Shown here piece after piece: positions 20,073 through 63,856 of a stretch of 64,000 nt of DNA (within the stretch, counting starts at the first letter, position 1; every line of letters starts with the position of its first letter). The position numbers and the translations under genes were made by a program. The stretch is taken from contig CBDFMP010000048.1 in NCBI GenBank assembly GCA_965249715.1, positions 69,713-133,712 of the forward strand, read 5' to 3'. The stretch comes from Spirochaetota bacterium. GTDB taxonomy: Bacteria; Spirochaetota; UBA12135; COTS27. The notes beneath the pieces are model-generated. The model saw only the letters and a program-made list of their open reading frames with translations, ran no database searches and was not told the DNA's origin.

Positions 20073-20140
20073 GTTTTGTTATTTAGTTTTAGCGGGTTAG
20101 GCGATTAACAAAAAATCGTCCTGAGCTCGGTTAAAGCCTA

Positions 20141-20185
20141 AAGCCCACGCAGGATGCCAGTTGGTATTCTGCGTGGGCTTTTTTT
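20141..20185 (+). terminator. Rho-independent terminator, copy 1 of 4
   Basis: Stem gcccacgcag (20143-20152) / ctgcgtgggc (20169-20178), followed by T7 (20179-20185). Confidence 0.85.
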
Positions 20186-20191
20186 GTCGAT

Positions 20192-20618
20192 TGGAGAGGG
20201 TATCGCAGTTGCTTATCCCGATAACTTCGGTTATCAGGCTATTTATAACGGTGGTACTGACCTCTTGGAAGACATTGCTGTGAAAATTGTTCCCGCTGTT
20301 ACTGTTGGGCAATTCACTGTTTCACTGCCTATTAAGTTTGAGCTTTACGGCACTACTTATGGCGGTTATCAGTTGCGTCAGGATCCAGTGTATATCATTG
20401 ACGTTGAGCCGACTATTAAGTGGTCGCCTGCTGCTGGCATTACCGTCAAAGCGCTTATTGGTATTGACCTGATCAATACTTCTGTAGGCGATTTCAATAC
20501 TGATATTGGTATTGGCTTTGTTGATCAAGGTCATACCAGCGGTGAAACTGGTTTTGGTATTGATGATATTTTTGGACAGCTTCAAGTAGCTGCTTCATTC
20601 GGAATATCTTCTGAGTAA
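20192..20618 (+). pseudogene. Promoterless, frame-intact copy of the last ~140 codons of the 18656-20072 gene (3' cassette)
   Basis: Homology to 19644-20072 begins immediately after terminator copy 1. There are no frameshifts and many substitutions, and the stop is at 20616-20618. Confidence 0.8.
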
Positions 20619-20685
20619 GTTTTGTTATTTAGTTTTAGCGGGTTAGGCGATTAACAAAAAATCGTCTGAGCTCGGTTAAAGCCTA

Positions 20686-20730
20686 AAGCCCACGCAGGAT
20701 GCCAGTTGGTATTCTGCGTGGGCTTTTTTT
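20686..20730 (+). terminator. Rho-independent terminator, copy 2 of 4
   Basis: Same stem at 20688-20697 / 20714-20723, followed by T7 (20724-20730). Confidence 0.85.
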
Positions 20731-20906
20731 GTCGATGTTAGTGTAGGGGGCTATTTATAACGTGGTACTGACCTCTTGGGTCTGTGTGCCGATTGCTGTT
20801 ATGAGGTTTCGTTGGCGGCGCGCGGGGGGGCGTTGCATTGCGATGGGAGGACGTAGGCTTTCCGTGAGTGTCTTATTGTTTATCGTAGTGATGTTAGAAT
20901 TAGTAT

Positions 20907-21910
20907 ATGGGAAAGTGGAGTAAGCTGGTGCAGATTTTGGCATTCGGAATATTTTAAAGAGAATTACTGCTCGTGGCTTTGGTCAATAGTTATTATTTTA
21001 AGTATAGTTGGATGTGCATATTGGTTAGGCTTATGCTTTAATGAGAGTAAAGCTAATTAGTGTATTTAATTGCTACTATAATGATAGGAATATTTACGCC
21101 TGCTTTTACTATTTCTGAATACAGGAACATATAAATCAGAATTTCAGTTAAAAGAAGTTCATAGTGAGGATACTCGGTCTTAAGGACCGCTCATGCTGAT
21201 ATATCGGTCAGTTAAGAAAGGATCATGGTGAGGATAGTCGGTCAGTTAAAAGAAATTTATGACAGTAAGCTTAAGGCACAAAAAATAGCAATTTGATAAC
21301 AATAAAATTGTTTTTTTGGGTTCACGTATCTTATGGAAATTGCAGAAAAGTTAATTGAAGAAGTAACCAAGAGACAAGGAATATGAAAATTTGGATCTGA
21401 TGAAAGGATTTGTGTTTATAGGTATTTTTCCAAAGAAAGGGGGTTTAGGTGTATTGGACGTTATTCAAAAGTAGATCCAGAATTAAATAAATTTGTCGAG
21501 AATAAATTATTATCAGTGAAGGATTTATATCTAACGTATTTAAGAAAACCGATTGGGTAGAAGCAATAGCTTCCAAGTATTCCACATGATAATAGGATGC
21601 AGTATAGAGCGTTGGAAACGATACAGGGCGGATAGATCATATAAAAGAGGAGGATCAAGGCTTTTCCTTAAGAGGTATCAGAGCATATATTAAAGAGGAG
21701 CATGGACTTACGCCTGATGTTTATGAAAAATTTCGCATGAATGCTGAGCATATGATTGCTAAAAAATTACAGGATAAAACAGCTATAGGCGTTATTGTGT
21801 TTGAAAGCTGCCGCAAGGATTTTCTTTCATTGGAATGTATAAAAAAAGCTTGCACTAAGAATGATGAGCAGTTTATAATTAGGATGATATGTGATCATTT
21901 TCATGAATAA
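20907..21910 (+). pseudogene. Decayed copy of the 2-TM cassette gene (paralogue of 22745-23611)
   Basis: Upstream region and first ~23 nt are identical to those of 22745. A stop follows after 16 codons. Internal fragments are recognisable (CVYRYFSKERGFRCIGRYSK.., ~21410-21540) with in-frame stops. The C-terminal ~80 codons (21660-21910) are still alignable, including FRMNAEHMIAK. Confidence 0.75.
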
Positions 21911-21930
21911 GCATAATTAATGGATGAGGG

Positions 21931-22476
21931 ATGATGACAACAGCGACAATTGCAGAGAGCCAAACGATTCTTATGGACGTTATGGCTTATATTTGTAAAA
22001 GATATAGTAGCCCGGAAGAACTTTCCAAAGCAAGGCTGACGAAGCTAATTTATTTGGCGGATTGGAGGTCTGCTAAGACTAAGAGTGATAACAGTCAAAT
22101 CACGAATATTAAATGGTATTTTAATCATTACGGGCCTTATGTGGATGATGTGGTGGATGTGATCATTGATCACGAGGACACTTTTAAGCTTGACCCCGGT
22201 ACTAATATTTATGGTGGTGTCCGTGATCTTGTGAGGTTAAAAAAAGCGGATTACGAGTATGGGCAGCTGCAACGAGAGGAAGACAAAAAGCTCTTGGATG
22301 AAATTATTACTAGGAGTGCAGGGTTGAATTGGACTAGATTTATAGACTTAGTTTATTCATCTTACCCTATTACAGTTTCCGAACGCTATGCTCAGCTTGA
22401 TTTGCCAGCTTTAGCAAGAGAGTACAAAGAGCGCGAAAGCAAGCCGCATTTCGAGCTTATTGCTGATGACATTTAG
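21931..22476 (+). CDS. Panacea/DUF4065 (SocA/GepA-like) antitoxin-domain protein, copy 1
   Basis: 181 aa. Strings RLTKLIYLADW..WYFNHYGPYVDDV fit the DUF4065 pattern (KLxKLLY..W..GPV). About 65% identical by eye to 23671-24213. Confidence 0.7.
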   Translation: MMTTATIAESQTILMDVMAYICKRYSSPEELSKARLTKLIYLADWRSAKTKSDNSQITNIKWYFNHYGPYVDDVVDVIIDHEDTFKLDPGTNIYGGVRDLVRLKKADYEYGQLQREEDKKLLDEIITRSAGLNWTRFIDLVYSSYPITVSERYAQLDLPALAREYKERESKPHFELIADDI

Positions 22477-22541
22477 TCGCGTAGTTGTAATTTTTAAGGC
22501 TGGATGATTTAACTAATCGTCTGAAGCCCGATTAAAGCCTA

Positions 22542-22586
22542 AAGCCCACGCAGGATGCCAGTTGGTATTCTGCGTGGGCTTTTTTT
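22542..22586 (+). terminator. Rho-independent terminator, copy 3 of 4
   Basis: Stem at 22544-22553 / 22570-22579, followed by T7 (22580-22586). Confidence 0.85.
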
Positions 22587-22744
22587 GTCGATGTTAGTGT
22601 AGGGGTCGCGTGGGGGGGTCTGTGTGCCGATTGCTGTTATGAGGTTTCGTTGGCGGCGCGCGGGGGGGCGTTGCATTGCGATGGGAGGACGTAGGCTTTC
22701 CGTGAGTGTCTTATTGTTTATCGTAGTGATGTTAGAATTAGTAT

Positions 22745-23611
22745 ATGGGAAAGTGGAGTAAGCTGGAGCAGATTTGGGGATTCATAAAAGAAAACTACCG
22801 TTGGTGGGTTTTATATATATGTATATTGGGTGTTGTTAGCCTACTTGCAGATTCAAGTGAGCTAATGAGGTGTTTAAGACAACAAAAGTTAGGGTTAGTG
22901 GAGTGTTTTAGGCAACTAAATTTTGTATATTCTTTTACAACTCTCTTGGGACCGCTAGCTATATATGGTTTTGAGGAATGGAGAAAGTCTAAACTGAAAA
23001 AATCTTACAAGGAAAAATTTGAGAACCTGGAAATAACGTTTAAGGAGAATAGCTTAGACTTACATCTTACGTTAATTATAAAAAAATTAAATGCTCTAGC
23101 AGCAGCAAATAATCAGGCATTTGGAACCACTGAAAGACTTTGTATTTATAAACATTTTCCAAGAACTGAAAATGAAGGAGAATGTTTTAGGTGTGTCGGG
23201 CGTCGTTCAAGCAATAAAGAACTTGCCAAATTTACTAAGGATAATCTATATCCTATTGGGAATGGATTTATATCAAAAGTATATCGTGAGGGCAATGAGT
23301 GGTTGGTAGATAGGGATTTTCTGAGTATTTCGCCTGATGATAGGGATCGTATATTGCGAGGGGAGCATCCTGGTTCACTTGAGCAGTATCGAGCAGATAT
23401 TAAAAGGAGGCATGGGATTACAAGGGAGACTTCCAAAAGCTTTCGCATGAATGCTGAGCATATGATTGCTAAACAACTAAAGGATCATAACAATGAGGAG
23501 GTTATTGGAGTTATTTTATTTGAAAGTCAACGTAAGAATTTCCTTTCATTAGAGCTTATAAAAAAATCTTGCACAGAAACAGATGAGCAGCTTATAATTA
23601 ATATGATGTGA
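22745..23611 (+). CDS. 2-TM membrane protein with an unassigned ~160-aa C-terminal domain (GAF-like or HEPN-like strings); putative toxin/effector partner of the Panacea protein
   Basis: 288 aa. TM segments RWWVLYICILGVVSLLA and FVYSFTTLLGPLAIYGF, then a charged linker. C-terminal strings YPIGNGFISKV and EVIGVILFES, plus RMNAEH (an R-x4-H motif, nt 23444-23461). No SD; TAGAAT (22733-22738) lies 6 nt before the ATG. Confidence 0.6.
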   Translation: MGKWSKLEQIWGFIKENYRWWVLYICILGVVSLLADSSELMRCLRQQKLGLVECFRQLNFVYSFTTLLGPLAIYGFEEWRKSKLKKSYKEKFENLEITFKENSLDLHLTLIIKKLNALAAANNQAFGTTERLCIYKHFPRTENEGECFRCVGRRSSNKELAKFTKDNLYPIGNGFISKVYREGNEWLVDRDFLSISPDDRDRILRGEHPGSLEQYRADIKRRHGITRETSKSFRMNAEHMIAKQLKDHNNEEVIGVILFESQRKNFLSLELIKKSCTETDEQLIINMM

Positions 23612-23670
23612 ATGGTTTATGATACATAGGGCACTAAGTTTTGTATAGCTTCATACATGGATGACAGGAT

Positions 23671-24213
23671 ATGACAACGGCAGTAGCTGCAGAAAGCCAA
23701 ACAATACTTATGGATGTTATGGCTTATATTTGTAAAAAATATCCTTATGCGAGAGCTCTTTCTAAGGGAAGGCTGACGAAGCTGATTTACTTAGCAGATT
23801 GGAAGTCTGCTAAGGATAGAGGCAGGCAGATTACGGATATTGAATGGCACTATAATCATTATGGTCCTTATGTGGATGATGTGGTGGATGTGGTTATTAA
23901 ACACGATGACATTTTTGAGCTTGAAGCTGACACTAATATTTATGGTAGTATGAATGATCTTGTGAAGCTAAAAAAAGCAGATTATGGATATAAGAAGTTG
24001 CAGCAATTGGATGAGGATAAAAAGATCTTAAGTGAAATTATTGATAAGAGTGTAAAGTTAAATTGGACTGATTTTATTCAGTTAGTCTATTCATCATATC
24101 CTCTTAAGGTTTCTAAGCGTTATCAAGATCTTGACTTGCCGGTTTTAGCAAGAAAATACAAAAAGAGTAGACGCTGGTGGCTGAATTTTGAGCTTATTGC
24201 CGATGACATTTAG
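23671..24213 (+). CDS. Panacea/DUF4065 (SocA/GepA-like) antitoxin-domain protein, copy 2
   Basis: 180 aa. Strings RLTKLIYLADW..WHYNHYGPYVDDV. Lies 59 nt downstream of 22745-23611 and is followed by terminator copy 4. Confidence 0.7.
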   Translation: MTTAVAAESQTILMDVMAYICKKYPYARALSKGRLTKLIYLADWKSAKDRGRQITDIEWHYNHYGPYVDDVVDVVIKHDDIFELEADTNIYGSMNDLVKLKKADYGYKKLQQLDEDKKILSEIIDKSVKLNWTDFIQLVYSSYPLKVSKRYQDLDLPVLARKYKKSRRWWLNFELIADDI

Positions 24214-24271
24214 CAGCGTAGTTGTAATTTTTTAGGCTGGATGATTTAACTAGTCGTCTGAGTCTATTAGT

Positions 24272-24316
24272 AAGCCCACGCAGGATGCCAGTTGGTATTC
24301 TGTGTGGGCTTTTTTT
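24272..24316 (+). terminator. Rho-independent terminator, copy 4 of 4
   Basis: Stem at 24274-24283 / 24300-24309 (one G-U pair), followed by T7 (24310-24316). Could also serve the convergent kdsB. Confidence 0.8.
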
Positions 24317-24470
24317 GTCGATGTTAGTGTAAGGGGGAGCTCCGTGTGCGATTGCTGTTAGTGAGTTCGTGCGGAGCTGGCACGACGAGCTCAGGTGACG
24401 GAGAATGCTGTGAAGTATTAGCTAAATTAAGGGATAAGCCAGTTAGTCGTCAGTCCTTGACTGACGCGTC

Positions 24471-33473: not shown

Positions 33474-34301
33474 ATGTCCTCATCCCTCAGTATGTTTGCG
33501 ATTAAGACTTTTTTACCGCGTACGATGTTTGTTTTTCTATGCAGCTTCACCGTGTGGCAAGCACAGCAGCTTTGTACAGCGTTTCCCGCCAGCGCCGCCG
33601 CTTCCAGGCTATCCGCTGCCGCTGCCAGGCAGTCCGTTTATTATGTAGCAGCGCGTTATGACAGCAACCAGCTCCTGCGCGTGGTAGAGCGACCGATTGT
33701 TTATACAGATGGCATTCTTTTTACCTATTTGGCGCCCACTCCCAATACGGAGGTCAGCATCAGTGGTAGTTTTGTTGACTGGCAGCTGAATATTAAACTC
33801 AGCCCCAACGCCTTAGGGATTCACAGTGTATGGGTCCCGCTGAATTTTCCCCCAGGCCGTTACAGTTACAAGTTTAACGTTGACGGTATTTGGATCAACG
33901 ATCCCCAGCAACCTTATCGCATCCAGGAAACGCAGCACTTGGGGACTGCTGTTACTGAGCATTCCGCTTTTCAGCTCTCGCAAGTGGTTGAGCAGCACCT
34001 AAGTAGTCCCGTTGCCCGGGGGCAAGGACTTTTTACGTTTTATTTAGCCGATAAGGGCTACACACGCGTCAGCTGGGTGGGAACGGCTAATCTTTGGCAC
34101 CCCACGCGTGATGCAATGGTTCTGAAAAATGGTTATTGGCAGCTCACCCGCCACCTCCCCATTGATGCCCCGTACTACCTGTTGTTAGCGGACGGCAACC
34201 TGAGCGTGGATCCGCTGAACGTCAATATTGCCGCTACACGCTTTCAGCCTCAGGTAAGTGTGGCACAAGGTGGCGGTTATTTTCTCAGCGAACGCAACTA
34301 A
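33474..34301 (+). CDS. Secreted protein with CBM48/AMPK-beta-like (glycogen-binding-type) beta-sandwich domains
   Basis: 275 aa with a signal-like N-terminus. Contains VSISGSFVDWQ...GRYSYKFNVDGIWINDPQQP, the classic G.F.W...Y.YKF.VDG.W..DP pattern. Confidence 0.55.
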   Translation: MSSSLSMFAIKTFLPRTMFVFLCSFTVWQAQQLCTAFPASAAASRLSAAAARQSVYYVAARYDSNQLLRVVERPIVYTDGILFTYLAPTPNTEVSISGSFVDWQLNIKLSPNALGIHSVWVPLNFPPGRYSYKFNVDGIWINDPQQPYRIQETQHLGTAVTEHSAFQLSQVVEQHLSSPVARGQGLFTFYLADKGYTRVSWVGTANLWHPTRDAMVLKNGYWQLTRHLPIDAPYYLLLADGNLSVDPLNVNIAATRFQPQVSVAQGGGYFLSERN

Positions 34302-34313
34302 TACAGTGACTGA

Positions 34314-36167
34314 CTAATGCAAATAGTCAATCGTGATCGTGCAGCAGTGCTCCTCAGCGGGCTGCGGTAAGCTGAGCTGCGCGAGAATATCGTCAGTGGG
34401 CGAAATAATGGTTATTGCGGCTTTCTGCTGGTTTGTTGATGGTTTTCTGCTGCGGCGCGACCGTGCAGGCAATGTTGTTTGAAGTTCCGTTGGTTCAGTA
34501 AAATCAAGGCTCAGTCGCTGCTGGGCGGCAGCACAGAGCTTTGGAAAGGTCTCAACCCCATTCCAGCAATACAAGCGCCTCTCCATTAAGGATTTCACCA
34601 AGCTTCAATGTACTGAGTAGGTCGTCATGGTGCCCACTAACATCAGTGTACGGGGAGTGATGGTTGCCAATAGTACTCCTTGGCACTTGTTGCAGGCGAT
34701 AAAGGTCGCCATGAAATAATGTGCCGTGTTGGCATGGCTGCCTGTTGCGGCGTTTGCCTAACATGTTTGGCGGCGGCTTTTTAATGCAAATAGTCAACGG
34801 TGATCGTGCAGCAGTGCTCCTCAGCGGGCTGCGGTAAGCTGAGCTGCGCGAGAATATCGTTAGTGGGCGGAATAATGGTTGTTGCGGCTTCAAGCTGGTC
34901 TGTTGATGGTTTTCTGCTGCGGCGCGGCACAGTGCAGGCAATGTTGTTTGAAGTTCCGTTGGTTCAGTAAAATCAAGGCTCAGTCGCTGCTGGGCGGCAG
35001 CACAGAGCTTGGGAAAGGTTTCACCCCATTCCAGCAATACAAGCGCCCTCCATTAAGGATTTCACCAAGCTTCAATGTACTGAGTAGGTCGTCATGGTGC
35101 CCGCTAACATCAGTGTACGGGGAGTGATGGTTGCCAATAGTACTCCTTGGCACTTGTAGGCGATAAAGGTCGCCGTGAATAATCTGCCGCGTTGGCATGG
35201 CTGTCTGCTGCGGCGTTTGCCTAACATGCTTGGCGGCGGCATTTTAATGCAAATAGTCAACGGTGATCGTGCAGCAGTGTTCCTCAGCGGGTTGCGGTAA
35301 GCTGAGCTGCGCGAGAATATCGTCAGTGGGCGGAATAATGGTTGTTGCGGTTTCCTGCTGGTCTGTTGATGGTTTTCTGCTGCGGCGCGACCGTGCAGGC
35401 AATGTTGTTTGAAGTTCCGTTGGTTCAGTAAAATCAAGGCTCAGTCGCTGCTGGGCGGCAGCACAGAGCTTGGGAAAGGTCTCACCCCATTCCAGCAATA
35501 CAAGCGCCTCTCCATTAAGGATTTCACCAAAATTCAATGTACTGAGTAGGTCGTCATTGTGCCCGCTAACATCAGTGTACGGGGAGTGATGGTTGCCAAT
35601 AGTACTCCTTGGCACTTGTAGGCGATAAAGGTCGCCGTGAATAATCTGCCGCGTTGGCATGGCTGTCTGCTGCGGCGTTTGCCTAACATGCTTGGCGGCG
35701 GCATTTTAATGCAAATAGTCAACGGTGATCGTGCAGCAGTGCTCCTCAGCGGGCTGCGGTAAGCTGAGCTGCGCGAGAATATCGTCAGTGGGCGGAATAA
35801 TGGTTGTTGCGGCTTCCTGCTGGTCTGTTGATGGTTTTCTGCTGCGGCGCGACCGTGCAGGCAATGTTGTTTGAAGTTCCGTTGGTTCAGTAAAATCAAG
35901 GCTCAGTCGCTGCTGGGCGGCAGCACAGAGCTTGGGAAAGGTCTCACCCCATTCCAGCAATACAAGCGCCTCTCCATTAAGGATTTCACCAAAATTCAAT
36001 GTACTGAGTAGGTCATCATGGTGCCCACTATCATCAGTGTACGGGGAGTGATGGTTGCCAATAGTACTCCTTGGCACTTGTAGGCGATAAAGGTCGCCGT
36101 GAATAATCTGCCGCGTTGGCATGGCTGTCTGCTGCGGCGTTTGCCTAACATGCTTGGCGGCGGCATT
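34314..36167 (-). repeat. Four extra tandem copies (462-467 bp each) of the 3' half of tsaE
   Basis: Unit ends (stop codons) fall at 36168, 35706, 35244, ~34781 and 34314. Units at 35706-36167 and 35244-35705 keep full 138-aa ORFs differing from the gene copy by 2 aa and 1 aa. The two distal units carry indels. Confidence 0.92.
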
Positions 36168-36980
36168 TTAATGCAAATAGTCAACGGTGATCGTGCAGCA
36201 GTGCTCCTCAGCGGGCTGCGGTAAGCTGAGCTGCGCGAGAATATCGTCAGTGGGCGGAATAATGGTTGTTGCGGCTTCCTGCTGGTCTGTTGATGGTTTT
36301 CTGCTGCGGCGCGACCGTGCAGGCAATGTTGTTTGAAGTTCCGTTGGTTCAGTAAAATCAAGGCTCAGTCGCTGCTGGGCGGCAGCACAGAGCTTGGGAA
36401 AGGTCTCACCCCATTCCAACAATACAAGCGCCTCTCCATTAAGGATTTCACCAAAATTCAATGTACTGAGTAGGTCGTCATTGTGCCCGCTAACATCAGT
36501 GTACGGGGAGTGATGGTTGCCAATAGTACTCCTTGGCACTTGCAGGCGATAAAGGTCGCCGTGAATAATCTGCCGCGTTGGCATGGCTGTCTGCTGCGGC
36601 GTTTGCCTAACATGCTTGGCGGCGATGTTGCTGTATTGTTTGGGCAAGTTTTGTTGCAGGGAAGCTTGCACGGCTGCGATGGCAGCTTTTAACGGTACTG
36701 GTGTTTGTTGTTGCGGCTTAGCGGGATAACTGTAAGCTTGCAGCAATGTAAAAGTGGGGGAGGGCAAGGCGGCGGCTGTTACGCCCAGTGCACGTAACAT
36801 GCTGCGAATAAGATGAGATTTGCCGCTGCCCATGGGACCAGTGACCAGCACCACTTCATCGCCAACTAAACTTTTTATATAAGCTAAGGCAAACACCGTT
36901 GTGGCAGCTGCCGATGGAAGCAGGAAACGAAATGTTTCTCTGCCAGTAGCGGATGGTAACGAGCTTGGCGAGGTTGACAA
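36168..36980 (-). CDS. tsaE: tRNA t6A37 biosynthesis ATPase TsaE (YjeE), unusually long
   Basis: Walker A GPMGSGKSH, SPTFTLL, HGDLYRL and LLEWGE. At 270 aa it is much longer than the ~150 typical, with an internal Q/P/A-rich insert and a ~60-aa C-terminal extension. Only a TTG start (36980) is available. Confidence 0.8.
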   Translation of the reverse strand: MSTSPSSLPSATGRETFRFLLPSAAATTVFALAYIKSLVGDEVVLVTGPMGSGKSHLIRSMLRALGVTAAALPSPTFTLLQAYSYPAKPQQQTPVPLKAAIAAVQASLQQNLPKQYSNIAAKHVRQTPQQTAMPTRQIIHGDLYRLQVPRSTIGNHHSPYTDVSGHNDDLLSTLNFGEILNGEALVLLEWGETFPKLCAAAQQRLSLDFTEPTELQTTLPARSRRSRKPSTDQQEAATTIIPPTDDILAQLSLPQPAEEHCCTITVDYLH

Positions 36981-46798: not shown

Positions 46799-47704
46799 TT
46801 ACCAATAAATGGCAATGCCCACATTCAGTTTTTGCGTAAACGTCAGTTTGTTTTTGGGCACAGGTTCCACAAAATACTCCAATGCTACAGCGTACTGGGT
46901 GTGCAAGGCCATGGTGGGGGTAAAAAACCACTCGTACGTGACGGCAGCTGTGGTGCGCACCGTATTACCCCAATGATAAAGTGCGGTCGTTTCTAACAAA
47001 GTATTGATCAGCACATCCACAAGTCCATTGCTATTTTCTAATACTTGTTCTAAATGGAAATTGTAAACGTTAAAACGCGGGCGTGCCACAGCACCGATAA
47101 CGGGAAGATAATAATGGATGCGCAAATGATGTTTTTTTAAAGCAAAATTCACCATCAGTGCCGGGCCAATGGTCATGGTGGCACTCCAGCCATAACTGAG
47201 AAAATTCTGAATCAACCAAAAGTCTAGATTGCCTTCAACCATAAACCCAAGGTAAAGTGTTGCTACTTTTGTTCGCAATACGCTAAATGCTGAACTATAG
47301 GCTAGATTGACGAGGATATCCAAGTCAGCGCCTGATTGGGTAACGGGCCCATTGTCACCTGTGGCGTAGTTGACTAAGAGCGCTCCCGCGCCTGCTGTCA
47401 TTTGCACATAATGATAATGCTGCGGAGCAATATGCTCATACCCCAGGTGGAGATTGCCGCCAAGTCCCAGACGATAAAGCGAAGAAACGACGAGATCACG
47501 ACCATCGTTTAAAAATATTCCACCAGCAATGGTAAAAACATTACGCCGCGCCTCAGTCTCAGTGTCCGTGTCCAATGCCGGTTCAGCTGCGGGTGCCTCA
47601 GCTGGCGGTGCTGTTATTTCCTGTGCTAATAGCTTGGCTGGTTCATGTAACCAGCTGCTGACTAAGTAGCTGCCAGCGATGAGCAAGATGTAAAGTATTC
47701 TCAT
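46799..47704 (-). CDS. Putative outer-membrane beta-barrel protein (paralogue family, member 1)
   Basis: 301 aa. Signal peptide MRILYILLIAGSYLVSS, amphipathic strand pattern and aromatic C-terminus ..VGIAIYW. Shares blocks with 49414-50211 (KHHLRIHYYLPVIG/KHTLELNWYVPLVG; WGNTVRTT/WGNSFRTT). Confidence 0.6.
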   Translation of the reverse strand: MRILYILLIAGSYLVSSWLHEPAKLLAQEITAPPAEAPAAEPALDTDTETEARRNVFTIAGGIFLNDGRDLVVSSLYRLGLGGNLHLGYEHIAPQHYHYVQMTAGAGALLVNYATGDNGPVTQSGADLDILVNLAYSSAFSVLRTKVATLYLGFMVEGNLDFWLIQNFLSYGWSATMTIGPALMVNFALKKHHLRIHYYLPVIGAVARPRFNVYNFHLEQVLENSNGLVDVLINTLLETTALYHWGNTVRTTAAVTYEWFFTPTMALHTQYAVALEYFVEPVPKNKLTFTQKLNVGIAIYW

Positions 47705-47724: not shown

Positions 47725-48179
47725 TTAATAAATGGCAATACCAAGACCGACCTGATGGACATAGTCTGTTTGTGTATTGGCGGTTAATTTCGGATAATAA
47801 GCTACTTTCAAGATAATTCGCGTATTCTGAATCATATTTTGGACGGCTCAGTACCTTCGCTTTCGTTTGCCGAAAGTGGTAACAGTAATAGGACGCTGCT
47901 GATAATAATAAGAGCTGTTGTGAGTCTTAGGTTTTTGCTAAGTGACATGATTTTATCATCCATAAGCTTAAAAGATTAATGATAATAACTATTTTAACGG
48001 CATGGTCTATAATTATAAATTAAAGTAGCAAATTTGTTGCTTTATAATAGAGCTGTACAGGTTTTTTAGACTTTATTTAATATATTGCCGTTGAATACAT
48101 TCAGTTCGGGAGGTAATTTGAGTTTTGCCGGCGGTGATGCCTGCAGTCCTTGTAGCCAAGCTGCCAGCAGCGGCACTTT
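47725..48179 (-). pseudogene. Internally deleted duplicate of the OMP-2 gene plus its upstream spacer and the neuB 3' end
   Basis: 47725-47948 aligns with the 3' and 5' ends of 49414-50211 (start cat at 47946-47948; stop after ~38 codons). 47950-48145 aligns with 50212-50405. 48146-48179 aligns with an internal neuB piece (~50944-50985). Confidence 0.75.
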
Positions 48180-49413
48180 GACAATGCCGCGGAGCAATAT
48201 GCTCATGCCCTAAGCGGAGCTTGCCATCAAGTCCTAGACGATAAAACAAAGAAACGACGAGCTCACGACTATCGTTTAAAAACATTCCACCAGCAATGGT
48301 AATGGTAAAAACATTGCGCTGCGCCCTCAGTGTCCGTGTCCAAGGCAGGCTCAGCTGTGGGTGCCCTCAGCAAGCGGTGCTGTTATTTCCTGTGTTAATA
48401 GCTTAGCTTGGCTGGTTCATGTAACCAGCCGCCAGCAGCGGCACTTTGACAATGCCGCGGAGCAATGTGCTCATGCCCTAAGCGGAGCTTGCCATCTAGT
48501 CCTAGACAATAAAACAAAGAAACGACGAGCTCACGACCATCATTTAAAAACATTCCACCAGCAATGGTAATGGTAAAAACATTGCGCTGCGCCCTCAGTG
48601 TCCGTGTCCAAGGCAGGCTCAGCTGTGGGTGCCCTCAGCAAAGCGGTGCTGTTATTTCCTGTGCTAATAGCTTGGCTGGTTTCATGTAACCAGCAGCTAC
48701 CAGCGCACTTTGACAATGCCGCGGAGCAATGTGCTCATGCCCTAAGCGGAGCTTGCCATCTAGTCCTAGACGATAAAACAAAGAAACGACGAGCTCACGA
48801 ATAAAAGGCAATGGTAATGGTAAAAAAGCCCTCAGTGTCCGTGTCCAAGGCAGGCTCAGCTGTGGGTGCCATCAGCAAGCGGTGCTGTTATTTCCGAGCT
48901 TGGCTGGTTTCATGTAAGCAGCTGCCAGCGATTTAAAATACACCCCTCTAATAAAAGGCAAGCCGCCAGTAGCGGCACTTTGACAATGCCGCGGAGCAAT
49001 GTGCTCATACCCTAAGCGGAGCTTGCCACCTAGTCCTAGACGATAAAACAAAGAAACGACGAGCTCACGACCATCATTCCACCAGCAATGGTAATGGTAA
49101 AAACATTGCGCTGCGCCCTCAGTGTCCGTGTCCAAGGCAGGCTCAGCTGTGGGTGCCCTCAGCAAGCGGTGCTGTTATTTCCTGTGCTAATAGCTTGGCT
49201 GGTTTCATGTAAGCAGCTGCCAGCGATGAGCAAGATGTAAAATATTCTCATCCCTCTAATAAAAGGCAAGCCGCCAGCAGCGGCAGCAAGCGGTGCTGTT
49301 ATTTCCTGTGTTAATAGCTTGGCTGGTTCATGTAAGCTTGGCTGGTTCATGTAAGCAGCTGCCAGCGATGAGCAAGATGTAAAATATTCTCACCCCTTTA
49401 ATTTCTCATCCCT
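48163..49413 (-). repeat. About 5 degenerate tandem copies (~240-290 bp) of the 5' end (first ~90 codons) of OMP-1, some including its start region and the OMP-2 stop junction
   Basis: Recurring blocks gccagcagcggcactttgacaatgccgcggagcaat..ctcagtgtccgtgtccaaggcaggctcagctgtggg..ggctggttcatgtaa are homologous to 47415-47704. Units start near 48163, 48431, 48695 and 48962, and at least one further unit begins in the rearranged stretch after ~49230. Confidence 0.8.
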
Positions 49414-50211
49414 CTAATAAAAGGCAATGCCAAGACCGACCTGATGGACATAGTCTGTTTGTGTATTGGCGGTTAATTCCGGATAATAATCTAATGAGAC
49501 GCCATAATGGCAAACAAAGCCTATAGACGGAAGTACTCCAATGCGGTAGGTTAAATTTATGGTAGTGCGAAAACTATTTCCCCATGAGCGCAGCCCCAGC
49601 TCCACTGGTTCTGTCTCGGCGTTCAGTGAACTGATGCCTACGAGCGGTACATACCAATTGAGCTCCAATGTATGTTTTCCGATAATGAATTCACCGATGA
49701 TGGCTGCGCCTAAGGTAGTTGTGGAAAAGGTATCGTAGCGATAAAGAATAGCGTCGCTCAGCAAAGTTGTATTATTTTCAATCGTAAAACCTAGATATAG
49801 ATTGAGAACTTTCAGTGGGAGGAGATTATAGCTTAGGTTGAAGGTGCCATTGATCAAACCGCGCAATGTTTCGTCGGGAGCATTGGGGGTGAACTCATGC
49901 CAAAATATTTCCACCCGCCCAAAGCCACGGACGCGATTTTTGATAAAATCCAATTGCACCCGTCCGCCGTAAACATAATAGTATGTGATCTCGGGCACTT
50001 CTATTTCTTCAAGATAATTCGCGTACTCTGAACTGTATCCAGGCACATCTACATTGTAAAACATGACGCTGGGAAGGATTGTGAAGATAAATTTTGTTTT
50101 TTTGGACGGCTCAGTACCTTCGCTTTCGTGTGCTGTTAGTGGTAGTAGCAATAGAGCGCTGCTGACAATAACAAGAGCTGTTATTATTCTTAGGTTTTTG
50201 ATAAGTGACAT
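49414..50211 (-). CDS. Putative outer-membrane beta-barrel protein (paralogue family, member 2)
   Basis: 265 aa. Signal peptide ..ALVIVSSALLLLPLTAHE and C-terminus ..VGLGIAFY. Paralogous to 46799-47704. Confidence 0.6.
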   Translation of the reverse strand: MSLIKNLRIITALVIVSSALLLLPLTAHESEGTEPSKKTKFIFTILPSVMFYNVDVPGYSSEYANYLEEIEVPEITYYYVYGGRVQLDFIKNRVRGFGRVEIFWHEFTPNAPDETLRGLINGTFNLSYNLLPLKVLNLYLGFTIENNTTLLSDAILYRYDTFSTTTLGAAIIGEFIIGKHTLELNWYVPLVGISSLNAETEPVELGLRSWGNSFRTTINLTYRIGVLPSIGFVCHYGVSLDYYPELTANTQTDYVHQVGLGIAFY

Positions 50212-57253: not shown

Positions 57254-58138
57254 ATGGACATATTGTCAGCTCCCGCACTTTCCTTAACACCTCTTAATTC
57301 TTATCAGGTCAAGCTTCCCACATGGAGCGGTCCTATGGAATTATTACTGGACCTCATTCGTTCAGCGCAACTGGAAATTACCGAACTCTCGCTTACACAA
57401 ATAACGGAAGATTACCTAAATCGCCTTACTGAGCTTAAACGGCTGGACATTGCCGTGAGTGTGGATTTTTTAGTTATGGGGGCGACGTTGGCGCTTTATA
57501 AAACGCGCGCGCTTCTGGGAGAGCCGGCTGAAGTGGAAGCAGCCGATGCCTACAAGGAAGCATTGGTCCAGCAACTGCTTAAATATGAGCAATACAAACA
57601 GGCGGCTATGCGTTTGGAACAGTTTTTGGAGCAGACGCCCGCTGTTACATTGGAAAAGGTGTCCTTAACAGCGCGTTTGCCGGCGACTGCTAAAGCTTAT
57701 CCTGTGGAACAACATGGGCAGTGGCAGCCTGCATCTTTGGCGGACTTGGCTGCGGCATTTTATCGCATCATGGATCGGCAGACACAAACGCTTGCCAAAG
57801 ATTCTTTTAGCAAATTTGCAGAAAAGGTTGAGGAGAAACGTTTATGGATAGTCAGCGAGCTTAAAGGCGCGCGCGGGATGAAAGGAGTGCCATTTTCGTA
57901 TTTTGTCAAAGCTGCAAGCGGCAACGCACCACTGCCCAGTGAAGTGCTGGCTGTGTTTGTCGCGCTTTTAGAACTTTACAAGCTGGCACAGCTGGAAGCT
58001 TATCAAGCTGAAGCTTTCGCAGAGATTATGCTCTTTAATAATGCCGCGCGTGCGCGCTCAACACCCGCTGAAACCAAGTCGACTGCTGCCACTGAAGTCA
58101 AACACGTCGACACAGCAGACGAACAAGCAGATCACTAA
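57254..58138 (+). CDS. scpA: Segregation and condensation protein A (kleisin)
   Basis: 294 aa. N-terminal GPMELLLDLIRSAQLEITELSLTQITEDYL is typical of ScpA. Its last ~56 codons form unit 0 of the downstream repeat array. Confidence 0.85.
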   Translation: MDILSAPALSLTPLNSYQVKLPTWSGPMELLLDLIRSAQLEITELSLTQITEDYLNRLTELKRLDIAVSVDFLVMGATLALYKTRALLGEPAEVEAADAYKEALVQQLLKYEQYKQAAMRLEQFLEQTPAVTLEKVSLTARLPATAKAYPVEQHGQWQPASLADLAAAFYRIMDRQTQTLAKDSFSKFAEKVEEKRLWIVSELKGARGMKGVPFSYFVKAASGNAPLPSEVLAVFVALLELYKLAQLEAYQAEAFAEIMLFNNAARARSTPAETKSTAATEVKHVDTADEQADH

Positions 58139-60347
58139 ACATAACTTTGTTGTGTTTTTAGAACATTACAAGCTGGCACAGCTGGAAGCTTATCAAGCTG
58201 AAGCTTTTGCAGAGATTATGCTCTTTAATAATGCTGCGCGTGCGCGCCCAACACCCGCTGAAATCGGGGCGGCGGCTGCCATTGAAATCAAGCACGCCGA
58301 CACAGCAGACGAACAAGCAGATAACTAAACATAACTTTGTTGCGTTTTTAGAACATTACAAGCTGGCACAGCTGGAAGTTTATCAAGCTGAAGTTTTCGC
58401 CGGGATTATGCTCTTTAACAATGCCGCGCGTGCGCGCTCAACACCCGCTGAAATCGTGTCGGCTGCTGCCATTGAAATCAAGTGCGCTGAGACAGCAGAC
58501 GAACAAGCAGATCACTAAACATAACTTTGTTGTGTTTTTAGAACATTACAAGCTGGCACAGCTGGAAGTTTATCAAGCTGAAGCTTTCGCAGAGATTATG
58601 CTCTTTAACAATGCCGCGCATGCGCGCCCAACACCCGCTGAAATCGTGTCGGCTGCTGCCATTGAAATCAAGCGCGCCGAGACAGCAGACGAACAAGCAG
58701 ATAACTAAACATAACTTTGTTGCGTTTTTAGAACATTACAAGCTGGCACAGCTGGAAGCTTATCAAGCTGAAGTTTTCGCCGGGATTATGCTCTTTAACA
58801 ATGCCGCGCGTGCGCGCTCAACACCCGCTGAAACCGTGTCGGTTGCTGCCATTGAAATCAAGTGCGCTGAGACAGCAGACGGACAACGATAACTAACGTA
58901 ATTTTGTTGCGTTTTTAGAACATTACAAGCTGGCACAGCTGGAAGCTTATCAAGCTGAAGTTTTCGCCGGGATTATGCTCTTTAACAATGCTGCGGGTGC
59001 AACACCCACTGAAACCGTTTTTAGAACATTACAAGCTGGCACAGCTGGAAGCTTATCAAGCTGAAGTTTTCGCCGGGATTATGCTCTTTAACAATGCCGC
59101 GCGTGCGCGCCCAACACCCGCTGAAACCGTGTCGGCTGCTGCCATTGAAATCAAGTGCGCGAGACAGCAGACGAACAAGCAGATAACTAAGCATAACTTT
59201 GTTGCGTTTTTGGAACTTTACTAGCTGGCACAGCTGGAAGCTTATCAAGCTGAAGTTTTCGCCGGGATTATGCTCTTTAACAATGCCGCGCGTGCGCGCC
59301 CAACACCCGCTGAAACCGTGTCGGCTGCTGCCATTGAAATCAAGTGCGTCGAGACAGTAGACGAACAAGCAGATAACTAAGCGTAACTTTGTTGCGTTTT
59401 TAGAACATTACAAGCTGGCACAGCTGGAAGATCACTAACATAACTTTGTTGTGTTTTTAGAACATTACAAGCTAGCTCAAGCTGAAGTTTTCGCAGAGAT
59501 TATGCTCTTTAACAATGCCGCGCGTGCGCGCCCAACGTTGAAACCTGCGCTGAACGTCGACACAGTAGACGAACAAGCAGATAGCGGTAACTTTGTTGCG
59601 TTTTTGAACATTACAAGCTGGCACAGCTGGAAGTTTATCAGATTGAAGCTTTCGCAGAGATTATGCTCTTTAACAATGCCGCGATGCGCGCCCAACACCC
59701 GCTGAAATCGTGTCGGCTGCTGCCATTGAAATCAAGTGCGCTGAGACACAGACGAACAAGCCGATAACTAAGCGTAATTTTGTTGCGTTTTTAGAACATT
59801 ACAAGCTGGCACAGCTGAAAGTTTATCAGATTGAAGTTTTCGCAGAGATTATGCTCTTTAACAATGCCGCGCGTGCGCGCTCAACACCCGCTGAAACCGT
59901 GTCGGTTGCTGCCATTGAAATCAAGTGCGCTGAGACAGCAGACGAACAAGCAGATAACTAAACATAACTTTGTTGCGTTTTTAGAACATTACAAGCTGGC
60001 ACAGCTGGAAGTTTATCAAGCTGAAGTTTTCGCCGGGATTATGCTCTTTAACAATGCCGCGCGTGCGCGCTCAACACCCACTGAAACCGTGTCGGCTGCT
60101 GCCATTGAAATCAAGTGCGCTGAGACAGCAGACGAACAAGCAGATAACTAAACATAACTTTGTTGCGTTTTTGGAACTTTACTAGCTGGCACAGCTGGAA
60201 GCTTATCAAGCTGAAGTTTTCGCCGGGATTATGCTCTTTAACAATGCCGCGCGTGCGCGCTCAACACCCGCTGAAACCGTGTCGGCTGCGCCATTGAAAT
60301 CAAGCGCGCCGAGACAGCAGACGAACAAGCCGATAACTAAGCGTAAC
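58139..60347. repeat. Tandem array (~190-bp period; ~11 full and 3 truncated units) copying the overlapping 3' ends of scpA (+) and hemJ (-)
   Basis: The unit landmark gaac(a/t)ttacaagctggcacagctgg occurs at 57971, 58161, 58351, 58541, 58731, 58918, 59024, 59213, 59403, 59460, 59606, 59794, 59984 and 60174. Each unit carries the scpA stop, and its reverse strand carries the hemJ C-terminal ..LSY.LVRLLSRRA codons. Confidence 0.92.
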
Positions 60348-61379
60348 CACGCCAATAACAATAAGCGTCGCAATGAGCGCCGGTAGCGGTTGTTTGAAAA
60401 TGGCTAAGAATACGATGCCGGTAAAGAGCATGGGTGCCACTTTATTGAAGCGCCGCAGCCGACGGCTGATACTTGTTGGCTGGGGGTGGTGTGGCTCCAG
60501 CATGACGCCCGCGATACAAATATGGTAGACCGCCAGTATTATGATCAACATCATTTTCCAGTATATCCAAGACTGGACAAACGCATTGCTTTTATAAGTT
60601 AATGCAATAAGCAGCCCGGAGATAATGGTGAGTATAAACGCAGAAATGGCAACACCGAATATATTGAGTTCCATGGAACTGTACTGTTTTTGTAGGGCTG
60701 CGCGCACTTCAGGGGTTAATGGCTCAGCTCCAGCAGTAGTGCTAAGCGCTTTCTGATGGTACACAGGCAGTTGTCCCCCACAAAAAATTGCCGCCATCCA
60801 GCTTACCATTGTAATAATATGAGCGACTAACATAAAATGGTAAGAAAAATTCTCCTCCCAGAAAAGAACTATAAGCTCATTTTTAAACGTCACAATGAGT
60901 GCCGATGGTGATTGTTTGTAAATTGCTAATAATATAATGCCCATAAAGAGCATGATGCCCATCAGTTTAATGAATAAGTGCAGACGGCGACTGCTCATTA
61001 CCGGCTGGGAGCGGCGCAGTTTCAGCATGATGCCCACGGCATACATATGGTAGCCCACCAGTGCTATGACCAACATCATTTTCCAGTGTATCCAAGACTG
61101 TGCAAAGGCATTGCTTCTGAGTGCAAGCTCAATCCCGAAAGCAATGGTGAGCATAAGCGCAGGCGTGGCAATAACGCTGAGGAGTCTGCGTTCCATGAAA
61201 CTGTACTGTTTTTGTAGGGCTGCGCGCACTTCAGGGGTTAATGGCTTAGCTCCATCAGCAGTGCTAAGCGCTTTCCGATGGTATGTAAGCAGTTGTCCCG
61301 CCAAAAAAAGTGCCGCCATCCAGCTTACCATTGCAATAATATGAATGCCTAAACTAAAATGATGAGAATATAGTTCCAT
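60300..61379 (-). CDS. hemJ: In-frame head-to-tail fusion of two HemJ (protoporphyrinogen IX oxidase, UPF0093) modules
   Basis: 359 aa. Both halves start with ..(E)LYS(H/Y)HF..HII(A/T)MVSWMAA and repeat the whole ~175-aa HemJ architecture. Function of the fusion is uncertain. Confidence 0.65.
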   Translation of the reverse strand: MELYSHHFSLGIHIIAMVSWMAALFLAGQLLTYHRKALSTADGAKPLTPEVRAALQKQYSFMERRLLSVIATPALMLTIAFGIELALRSNAFAQSWIHWKMMLVIALVGYHMYAVGIMLKLRRSQPVMSSRRLHLFIKLMGIMLFMGIILLAIYKQSPSALIVTFKNELIVLFWEENFSYHFMLVAHIITMVSWMAAIFCGGQLPVYHQKALSTTAGAEPLTPEVRAALQKQYSSMELNIFGVAISAFILTIISGLLIALTYKSNAFVQSWIYWKMMLIIILAVYHICIAGVMLEPHHPQPTSISRRLRRFNKVAPMLFTGIVFLAIFKQPLPALIATLIVIGVVTLSYRLVRLLSRRA

Positions 61380-61448
61380 TACAAATGTACTCCCTACCGC
61401 GTGGTATTGAATTTCATAAGAGTTAATGTTTGAATATGTAAAAAATAA

Positions 61449-61637
61449 TTAAAGCCGATTGAGCTCATTGAGACTATTGAGCGCAGCAATTCCATAAGCC
61501 TCAGCCATTGACGAATAAATAAACGTATTATTCAGGAAGTAGCGTAAGTTGTTAGCCGCGCCGCGCTGGTTCATGATGGCTTGACCTAGATGGATGAGCT
61601 CCGAAGTTTGTCGCCCCAAGCAGTGCGCGCCTAAAAT
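61449..61637 (-). pseudogene. Stray copy of the last ~62 codons of sthA
   Basis: ..[51 protein letters not shown] aligns with the true sthA C-terminus. The upstream end is fused to a fragment of the scpA/hemJ repeat (61640-61700). Confidence 0.85.
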
Positions 61638-61681
61638 TTCCCAACACCCGCTGAAACTAAGTTGGCTGCTGCCACTTGAAG

Positions 61682-62236
61682 TCAAGCGCGCCGAGACAGC
61701 AGACGGATAAACAGATAACTAAGCGTAACCACGCCAATAACAATAAGCGTCGCAATGAGCGCTGGTAGCGGTTGTTTGAAAATGGCTAAGAATACGATGC
61801 CGGTAAAGAGCATGGGTGCCACTTCATTGAAGAGCCGTAGCTGACGACTGCTCATTGTTGGCTGGGAGCGGCGTAGTTTCAGCATGATGCCCACGGCACA
61901 CATATGGTAGCCCACCAGTGCTATGACCAACATCATTTTCCAGTGTATCCAAGACTGTGCAAAGGCATTGCTTCTGAGTGCAAGATCAAGTCCGAAGACA
62001 ATGGTGAGCACAAGTGCAGGACTGGCAATAATGCTGAGGAGTCTGCGTTCCATGGAACTGTACTGTTTTTGTAGGGCTGCGCGCACTTCAGGGGTTAATG
62101 GCTCAGCTCCATCAGCAGTGTTAAGCGCTTCCTGATGGTACACAAACAGTCGTCCCACATAAAAAAGTGCCGCCATCCAGCTTACCACTGCAATAATATG
62201 AATGCCGAAACTAAAATGATAAGAATATAGTTCCAT
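61682..62236 (-). CDS. hemJ: Protoporphyrinogen IX oxidase HemJ (UPF0093 family)
   Basis: 184 aa with [22 protein letters not shown] and four TM segments. Confidence 0.8.
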
Positions 62237-62305
62237 TACAAATGTACTCCCTACCGCGTGGTCTTGAATTTCATAAGAGTTAATGTTTGAATATGTGAAA
62301 AATAT

Positions 62306-63856
62306 TTAAAGCCGATTGAGACCGTTGAGTGCAGCAATTCTATAAGCCTCAGCCATTGACGGATAATTAAACGTATTATTCAGGAAGTAGCGCAAGTTGT
62401 TAGCCTCGCCGCGCTGGCTCATGATGGCTTGACCTATATGGATGATCTCCGAAGCTTGCCGACCAAAGCAGTGAGTGCCTAAGATTTCCAGCGTCTTACG
62501 ATGGAAGAGCATCTTCAGCATGCCAATGTTATCGCCAAGGATCTGCGCTTTCGCAAGATTTTTAAAATTGGCAATGCCCACTTCATAAGGGATTTTTGCT
62601 TCCGTCAATTCGCGTTCGGTCTTGCCTATGCAGCTGATCTCGGGTGTGGTGTAAATACCGGTGGGAATATACAATGGCGAGAAATAAAAGCCTTTTAAGC
62701 TAAGTTTTGTCGCCACCAGGCAACGGCCTTGATCATAAGCGACACCCGCTAAACTTGGCCAGCCAATGACGTCACCGGCGGCAAAAATATTTGCTATCTT
62801 CGTCTGATAATCTTCGTTGACAGGCACAACGCCGCGTTTGTTGACAGTAATGCCAACGCGATCCAGTTTGAGACTGTTAATATTGGCGACGCGTCCTTGT
62901 GTCCAGAGCAGATAGGGCGCCTTAATGCACTTTCCCGATGTTAATATTAATTCTATATGATCATCGTATGTTTTCACAGCAGCATAATGTTCGCAGTTGC
63001 GGATGACAATACCCTGATCGCTCATATGGTAGTTAATGGCATTGCTAATCTCAGCGTCCAGGAAATCCAGCACGGTACTGCGGCTGTTGATCAGATCCAC
63101 TTTAGTGCCGAGGTTTTTTAAAATGCTTGCATACTCGCAGCCCACCACACCAGCGCCATAAATGGCAACGCCCACGGGGGTTTCAGTGAGGCCTAAGATT
63201 TTATCGCTGTCTAAGATGCGCGGGTGATTAAAATCAATGGTTTTGGGATGCATGGGACGTGAACCGGAGGCAATGACAATGTTTTCTGCCGTCACGCGTT
63301 CCTTACTGCCATTGGTATCAGTGAGAATGAGCGTGTGTTCATCATAAAAGGAAGCTTCAGCAAACCGCAGGGCAACCTTATTGCGTTTGTAAAAATTGTG
63401 GCGCATGCGCACTTGTGCATCAATGACCGTACGCGCCATGTTCAGAAAGTCTTTGAACGAAGGTGTGGGGGCACTGTATTCTTTGCCCAGATAAGGGATT
63501 TTGGAAAGATTCAAGTAGGCGATAATGCTTTGGCGCACGGATTTTGAGGGAATCGTCCCCCAATGTGTGCAGCCGCCGCCTATTTCTTTGAACCGCTCAA
63601 TGGCAAGAACACGTTTATTGGCTTTGCTTGCCATCATGGAAGCGCCTTCACCGGCAGGCCCTGTTCCAATGACAATAAAATCGTAATGGTAATGATGTTT
63701 CTTAGAGCTTTTACGCGCCGCTTGTTTGGGTTTGGTGTTTGGCTTGCTTGTGGCTGCGTTGTCTGATGCAGAGGGGGCGTCTGAAGCCTTAGCGGTTGCA
63801 GGTGGTTCTGACTTTGTGGTGTGAACTTGTGTGGAGTAAGGAGAGTATTGTCCCAT
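62306..63856 (-). CDS. sthA: Soluble pyridine nucleotide transhydrogenase with a ~50-aa basic low-complexity N-terminal extension
   Basis: YDFIVIGTGPAGEGASM..IGGGCTHWGTIPSK is diagnostic of SthA. At 516 aa it exceeds the ~466 typical. Confidence 0.88.
   Translation of the reverse strand: MGQYSPYSTQVHTTKSEPPATAKASDAPSASDNAATSKPNTKPKQAARKSSKKHHYHYDFIVIGTGPAGEGASMMASKANKRVLAIERFKEIGGGCTHWGTIPSKSVRQSIIAYLNLSKIPYLGKEYSAPTPSFKDFLNMARTVIDAQVRMRHNFYKRNKVALRFAEASFYDEHTLILTDTNGSKERVTAENIVIASGSRPMHPKTIDFNHPRILDSDKILGLTETPVGVAIYGAGVVGCEYASILKNLGTKVDLINSRSTVLDFLDAEISNAINYHMSDQGIVIRNCEHYAAVKTYDDHIELILTSGKCIKAPYLLWTQGRVANINSLKLDRVGITVNKRGVVPVNEDYQTKIANIFAAGDVIGWPSLAGVAYDQGRCLVATKLSLKGFYFSPLYIPTGIYTTPEISCIGKTERELTEAKIPYEVGIANFKNLAKAQILGDNIGMLKMLFHRKTLEILGTHCFGRQASEIIHIGQAIMSQRGEANNLRYFLNNTFNYPSMAEAYRIAALNGLNRL

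Follow-up and report, generated by a model that had tools for sequence, protein, structure and literature searches.

We describe a tandem array that lies between the convergent genes scpA and hemJ in a 64,000-nucleotide (nt) stretch of a Spirochaetota genome (GenBank assembly GCA_965249715.1, contig CBDFMP010000048.1, positions 69,713 to 133,712), referred to below as the window, in whose coordinates all positions are given. The array occupies 57956-60347, or 2,392 bp, and is built of 14 head-to-tail units (u0 to u13), whose borders were set by anchoring on conserved motifs before the pieces were aligned with MAFFT. An intact parent gene stands at each edge, scpA on the left and, on the opposite strand, a hemJ fusion open reading frame (ORF) on the right, and every unit can be traced to these two genes.

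57254..58138, plus strand: intact scpA gene of 294 aa, of which the 61 codons at the 3' end form u0 (Pfam PF02616)
57956..58145, plus strand: u0, 190 bp, made up of the functional 3' end of scpA and the 7 nt beyond it
58146..58902, plus strand: u1 to u4, 190, 190, 190 and 187 bp, non-coding copies of alternating variant types (u1 resembling u3, and u2 resembling u4)
58903..59008, plus strand: u5, 106 bp, with an internal deletion at a CGT microhomology, matching a period-106 row from Tandem Repeats Finder
59009..59387, plus strand: u6 and u7, 189 and 190 bp, u6 with a 1-nt deletion and u7 with a premature stop (Lys to stop) in the scpA frame
59388..59444, plus strand: u8, 57 bp, truncated by an internal deletion
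59445..59590, plus strand: u9, 146 bp, truncated by an internal deletion
59591..60158, plus strand: u10 to u12, 188, 190 and 190 bp, u10 with 1 nt missing at three places compared with the other units
60159..60347, plus strand: u13, 189 bp, its scpA-derived part dead (stop and frameshift)
60300..61379, minus strand: hemJ fusion ORF, 359 aa, with two HemJ modules (PF03653/UPF0093)

The scpA/hemJ junction and the anatomy of the array

Both parent genes were identified by a Pfam match above the gathering score. ScpA matches PF02616 with an E value of 9e-19 and 68.8 bits (cutoff 24.6), over residues 34-258 and positions 1-227 of the 232 in the model, and HemJ matches PF03653 with 128.9 and 124.2 bits (cutoff 34.2). 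The left-hand unit, u0, begins precisely with scpA codon 235 and extends 7 nt beyond the stop codon at 58138; it encodes a conserved C-terminal helix (LLELYKLAQLE..FAEIMLFNN) followed by a non-conserved 31-residue tail, and it retains the residues that are conserved in ScpA orthologues (LELYK, FAEI). At the other edge, the last 16 codons of the hemJ fusion lie within u13, the final 48 nt of which (60300-60347), when read on the minus strand, are the genuine hemJ C-terminal codons VTLSYRLVRLLSRRA and their stop. This same unit carries an scpA-type TAA at 60338-60340, which together with the hemJ end at 60300 shows that the two convergent genes overlapped by 41 nt in the ancestral single-copy arrangement. 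The real scpA and hemJ stops are now 2,161 nt apart. An earlier note on this DNA, which was made from the letters and a list of ORFs, had read each unit as a copy of the overlapping 3' ends of the two genes, with the real scpA end in the first unit and the true hemJ-fusion stop in the last, and on all of these points our analysis agrees with it.

The repeat is regular well beyond chance, with all 14 units in register and an 83-nt core that recurs in 13 copies at 88% identity or more. For 57956-60347 Tandem Repeats Finder calls a period of 190 with 5.5 copies, 92% matches and a score of 1712, and a second period-190 row with 7.0 copies, 84% matches and a score of 1815; it also calls a period of 380 in part of the array, and its scores for the array range from 1712 to 2066. 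The units start at 57956, 58146, 58336, 58526, 58716, 58903 and 59009 (u0 to u6) and at 59198, 59388, 59445, 59591, 59779, 59969 and 60159 (u7 to u13), the array ending at 60347, and they measure, in order, 190, 190, 190, 190, 187, 106, 189, 190, 57, 146, 188, 190, 190 and 189 bp. Thus 11 of the 14 are of 187-190 bp and three (u5, u8 and u9) are truncated, each with a deletion junction of the microhomology type. The earlier count of a first unit and thirteen further starts, eleven units near full length and three truncated, is the same as ours. As for which units are truncated, the position 59403 given at the time does fall in a truncated one, whereas 59024 and 59606 mark full-length units that follow truncated ones. 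It had also been proposed that every unit contains both an scpA-type stop and a hemJ tail; we find the scpA-type stop context in 12 of the 14 and a recognisable hemJ tail in 11 (in frame to its stop in eight of these).

As the earlier note remarked, the period is not a multiple of three. Since 190 equals 63 x 3 + 1, ORFs of 93-106 aa can begin in one frame of a unit and continue in the scpA frame of the next. These unit-spanning ORFs lie within 58041-60151, and the source annotation lists at least three of them as proteins (P0026-P0028). We regard them as likely spurious gene calls.

Loss of constraint and exchange of sequence among the units

The thirteen extra copies are unconstrained pseudo-fragments. 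Of the 32 substitution events that we counted in the scpA frame of u1-u13, 23 are nonsynonymous. The synonymous share of 0.28 (9 events) is close to the 0.30 expected of random changes at the observed ratio of transitions to transversions (23:9). Lysine codons have become stops in u7 and u13, and frameshifts are found in u6, u10 and u13. Moreover, L241H is present in most copies and E257G in many, both at positions that are conserved among ScpA homologues, and the inner hemJ-type tails carry amino-acid changes of their own (R to Q, A to T, T to M and L to F).

One could nevertheless propose that the array is a functional element, either as a transcriptional buffer, as a multi-copy antisense RNA against the scpA and hemJ 3' ends, or through expression of the 93-106-aa ORFs with their ScpA C-terminal fragment. 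Read-through from either gene would give antisense to the end of the other in up to 13 copies, the ORFs do cross the unit borders and three have been annotated, and the array has persisted despite its age. The tests for function speak otherwise. The scpA frame is under no constraint, and truncated and frameshifted units are tolerated. Promoter-like and terminator-like counts are near those of shuffled sequence (13 vs 8.1 +/- 3.2, and 10 vs 8.0 +/- 2.6, respectively), so that neither signal is enriched. The RNA of the unit folds no better than shuffles (z-scores of +1.25 and +0.92), and the unit alignment is free of covariation (term -0.41, with 1 of 55 pairs compensatory). A weak hairpin does recur on the minus strand, as a 5-bp stem within the hemJ tail. 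Finally, no homologues of the array were found outside the contig. We therefore consider a functional element of any of these kinds very improbable.

Several other candidates were also tried and set aside. A structured non-coding RNA repeat found no support in Rfam, where 55-64 kb of the window gave no match at E<=1, nor in the fold z-scores or covariation. No parS-like loading site for SMC was found in the array, and counts of such sites in the window are at chance level. Among the window ORFs of at least 150 aa that were scanned there is no transposase, recombinase or reverse transcriptase, the larger ORFs being housekeeping genes (Suf, PyrG, CarAB, DnaK/J/GrpE, CopA, NeuB, SdhABC and MgsA). 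A mobile-element origin was rejected on this ground, and the unit is plainly host gene sequence. A diversity-generating retroelement, with its template and variable repeats (TR/VR), was rejected because these ORFs hold no reverse transcriptase domain and because the substitutions show no bias towards A, only 7 of 32 being at A and transitions dominating.

Sequence has been exchanged between the units time and again. Interleaved along the array are two sequence types (GCTTTCGCAGAG versus GTTTTCGCCGGG, GAAGCTT versus GAAGTTT), just as had been noticed from the letters, and the closest pairs of units are non-adjacent (u2/u12 at 98.4%, u7/u13 at 97.4% and u4/u12 at 96.3%). In a four-gamete test on the 22 informative sites, 111 of 231 pairs show all four allele combinations, and sites close together conflict less often than sites far apart (0.33, where permutation gives a mean of 0.48 and not one value as low in 2000). 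These tests and the non-adjacent nearest relatives support the proposal in the earlier note that the interleaving reflects repeated recombination and not a single burst of amplification. Part of it (u1 with u3, u2 with u4, and the 380 period) also fits a duplication of two-unit blocks; beyond u1-u4 we found neither a decay of similarity with distance nor a strict two-unit periodicity. The most divergent unit is u0, with 82-90.5% identity to all others and 85.6-90.5% to the full-length ones, and in u1 the u0-like states form a mosaic with array-like ones.

An anatomy in which an expressed gene end is followed by many partial variant copies, combined with evident gene conversion among those copies and a mosaic u1, is reminiscent of a reservoir of silent cassettes. 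Silent cassette arrays serve antigenic variation in the vls locus of Borrelia and the pilS loci of Neisseria, and the inner units would in the same way donate sequence by gene conversion to the 3' end of scpA or hemJ. Like vls and pilS, the locus has an expressed gene flanked by partial variant copies with conversion between them. Unlike in those systems, the target is no surface-exposed protein under diversifying selection, ScpA being a cytoplasmic kleisin and the last 16 HemJ residues a short membrane-protein terminus, and neither is an obvious candidate for such selection. Nor are the copies kept open and diversified: variation is neutral-like with no excess of amino-acid change, and stops or frameshifts interrupt u6, u7, u10 and u13. 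The expressed copy is not homogenised with the array, u0 being the unit least like the others and hence not being overwritten, and the same architecture is found at tsaE, another housekeeping gene. On these results a cassette reservoir is extremely improbable.

The mosaicism also bears on whether the array is real. The whole sequence comes from one assembly, where it lies on one contig of 202,120 bp, and several 1-nt indels occur in u6, u10 and u13, as might be seen if the true locus held one or a few units that the assembler had expanded or put in the wrong order. An error-driven expansion would, however, give near-identical units with random noise, whereas here the 22 phylogenetically informative variants are combined differently in every unit, and no two of the three truncated units share a junction. 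Base quality is good, since the genes on either side are long, uninterrupted ORFs that match their Pfam models in full, and two other arrays and several duplications of different ages are found on the same contig. An assembly artefact is thus very unlikely.

Other duplications at the junction, in the window and in a relative

To the right of the array the same junction has been duplicated further, and hemJ is present in three copies within 60300-62500.

61449..61641, minus strand: sthA 3'-end fragment, 89% identical to 62310-62489, within a tandem duplication of about 857 bp
61642..61729, plus strand: scpA-tail relic, 88 nt (CAACACCCGCTGAAAC...TAAGCGTAAC), carried by the 857-bp duplication and overlapping the end of hemJ-3
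61682..62236, minus strand: hemJ-3, 184 aa, HemJ (PF03653), the hemJ copy most like the COTS27 orthologue
62306..63856, minus strand: sthA-like pyridine nucleotide-disulphide oxidoreductase gene, the source of the fragment at 61449-61641

The duplication of about 857 bp has a sharp junction at 61641|61642, and it copied the third hemJ along with 193 bp of the sthA 3' end (now a 78-aa pseudo-ORF at 61449-61685) and the 88 nt of scpA tail. Within the hemJ fusion, an internal tandem duplication of 522 bp (3 x 174) links the two modules in frame. The scpA-tail relic is 83-89.5% identical to the unit tails and stands beside hemJ-3, and therefore the scpA and hemJ ends were already joined before these duplications took place. 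The relic also polarises changes within the array. It shares with u0 the ancestral states AAGT and CCACTGAAGTC, whereas u1-u13 all have derived states at those sites (GTGT or GGGG, and CCATTGAAATC), which argues that a single copy on the hemJ side, by then already distinct from u0, either gave rise to u1-u13 or was the sequence to which they were homogenised. The hemJ-encoding AAGCGCGCCGAGACAG is kept in u13, u3 and the relic and lost in u0.

The scpA/hemJ array is not the only duplication of a gene end that the window shows in this symbiont-like genome. An array of five 462-bp copies at 34315-36624 (Tandem Repeats Finder, 97% matches; 462 = 3 x 154) copies the 3' part of its parent gene, tsaE (36168-36980, minus strand, PF02367), and comes to within 13 nt of the stop codon of a convergent gene with an AMPK1_CBM domain (33474-34301). 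Three further copies in it keep a 138-aa ORF (MPTRQIIHGDLYRL...DYLH) and two are degraded. We saw no junction motif common to the 190-bp and 462-bp arrays. A degraded 268-bp array of 4.1 copies at 48151-49224 (74% matches) copies the 5' part of an outer-membrane-like gene that has no Pfam match; related copies lie at 47387-47509, paralogous genes at 46799-47704 and 49414-50211, and the array itself sits in a 1.7-kb stretch without long ORFs. Tandem duplications of 546 bp and about 1.8 kb are found in a low-GC segment (38-39%) at 19736-24335, which includes two genes with SocA/Panacea antitoxin domains (21931-22476 and 23671-24213). The segment also has four copies, at 20124, 20669, 22525 and 24255, of an 81-nt element that bears a strong terminator-like hairpin (GCCCACGCAGGAT...ATTCTGCGTGGGCTTTTTTT). 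Each of the duplications described either leaves an intact gene copy at an edge or is in frame, a pattern that would be expected if tandem duplications arise often and only those that spare genes survive.

The best ScpA homologue outside the source contig, with 46% identity, is that of 'Spirochaetes bacterium COTS27', a starfish symbiont whose genome is the nearest. Its locus (AP019861.1, 1770875-1791771) is syntenic, with NeuB, sdhB/A/C, mgsA, the convergent pair scpA and hemJ, and sthA, and has a single hemJ. The 190-bp array is absent from this locus, where the gap between scpA and hemJ is 205 bp and contains a 17-bp repeat of 3.5 copies. Over its 21 kb Tandem Repeats Finder returns 38 rows, nearly all of them short-period (8-77 bp) and intergenic, and considering that the locus is so rich in short tandem repeats, repeat-proneness seems to be a trait of the clade. 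The COTS27 genome is 2.68 Mb in size with only 1650 genes and no transposable elements, and its assembly has 23 gaps, all of them due to tandem repeats (PMC7444263).

Searches for further copies gave little else. Exact-protein look-ups with ScpA (under both start calls), a unit ORF and SthA found no match, and a scan of genome contigs with ScpA found only COTS27 and unrelated bacteria; a further candidate for comparison, from a high-GC organism with scpA-scpB, was irrelevant. Metagenome scans with ScpA and with a 32-nt unit pattern had no match, viral contig and plasmid searches found no copy of the locus, and a protein search with a unit ORF returned only three ORFs of the same contig.

Origin of the array and its relation to known repeats

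Taken together, these observations suggest that the array is probably a non-functional, neutral and slowly decaying tandem amplification of a 190-bp segment spanning the 41-nt overlap of the scpA and hemJ 3' ends, in a repeat-prone, host-associated lineage. In the sequence of events that we propose, scpA would first have come to run 41 nt into the end of hemJ in this lineage. An illegitimate tandem duplication, with no microhomology at its junction, would then have doubled the stretch that begins at scpA codon 235 and closes 7 nt beyond the stop. As such a duplication spans both stops, it would leave an intact scpA end on the left (u0) and an intact hemJ end on the right (the last unit), and so be tolerated. 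The hemJ-side copy may next have diverged and then been amplified by unequal crossing-over or slippage, multi-unit steps included, with repeated gene conversion between the units. The inner copies, being free of selection, would since have gathered substitutions, stops, frameshifts and microhomology deletions. Because the same process is seen at several other gene ends, its cause is probably lineage-wide and not a property of scpA or hemJ, namely a high rate or a weak purging of tandem duplications throughout the lineage, to which a host-restricted lifestyle may form the background.

Several points weigh against this decaying-amplification reading. The sequence is carried by one assembly, on which both copy number and unit order depend, and the proposed lack of function follows from a lack of signals. 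With differences of up to ~12-15% between units the array is old, and as bacteria usually delete useless DNA its survival over so long might be a hint that selection retains it, or else that the deletion bias is weak. Most full units retain a stop-terminated hemJ-like tail and an scpA-type stop. In addition, three independent duplications (190, 857 and 522 bp) at one junction could indicate a local hotspot mechanism. A bolder version would have this uncultivated, COTS27-related lineage actively and specifically amplifying gene ends at convergent junctions (scpA/hemJ and tsaE), with the arrays acting as recombination reservoirs able to rewrite the 3' ends of essential genes, or as multi-copy antisense or insulator modules that uncouple convergent transcription once genes have come to overlap; we hold this to be most unlikely. 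The artefact, cassette and functional RNA or ORF explanations are each disfavoured by the specific results given above, and we favour the decaying amplification.

Comparable repeats are known from host-restricted bacteria. Ehrlichia ruminantium reportedly carries variable-copy tandem repeats and duplicated gene fragments, as described by Collins and colleagues (2005, PNAS) and by Frutos and colleagues (2006, J Bacteriol). Similar to that organism, which is host-restricted and of low coding density, our locus has long-period tandem repeats in non-coding DNA near genes, signs of array expansion and contraction, and truncated gene fragments produced by duplication. In E. ruminantium the copy number varies between strains or isolates ('actively variable'). 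The two cases differ in that ours is from another phylum, that its unit is the overlapped ends of two convergent genes, and that its units are more diverged. E. ruminantium thus offers a precedent for repeat expansion in a host-restricted bacterium (PMC10710844), and the scpA/hemJ array, read as a decaying amplification, belongs to the same class as its tandem repeats and duplicated gene fragments.

The array may also be likened to the repeat-rich intergenic DNA of Portiera from Aleurolobini whiteflies (Bemisia, Singhiella), whose genomes are unstable and have expanded, repeat-rich intergenic regions (PMC7821994; Sloan & Moran 2013). Both have direct and tandem repeats with signs of recombination or gene conversion between them, and in both the repeats survive mainly outside intact genes, through purifying selection on the genes. 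Instability in Portiera is linked to the loss of dnaQ and other repair genes, and its repeats are mostly microsatellites and dispersed, unlike the 14-unit gene-end array described here. In form the array resembles a satellite. Satellite-type arrays evolve by unequal crossing-over and in concert, with higher-order repeats and divergent edge units, and the present array likewise has head-to-tail units, a 380-bp two-unit periodicity in part, mosaic variants and an edge unit, u0, that is the most divergent. Unlike such satellites it is bacterial, only 2.4 kb long, and pinned at its edges by selection on two real genes.

The array does not point to a new molecular system, and we regard it as a neat but ordinary case. 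Its value lies in being clean and fully traceable: it exemplifies how a tandem duplication that spans two overlapping stops can un-overlap a convergent gene pair with harm to neither gene, and can then grow into a small satellite of recombining, decaying units. Such arrays also matter in practice, as they break or mislead assemblies, as the source annotation took unit ORFs for proteins, and as they are candidate variable-number tandem repeat (VNTR) loci for strain typing. For the organism itself, this array and the other gene-end arrays of the window single out its lineage, which is poorly sampled and probably associated with invertebrates, as one that, like E. ruminantium or the unstable Portiera, is unusually given to tandem duplication.

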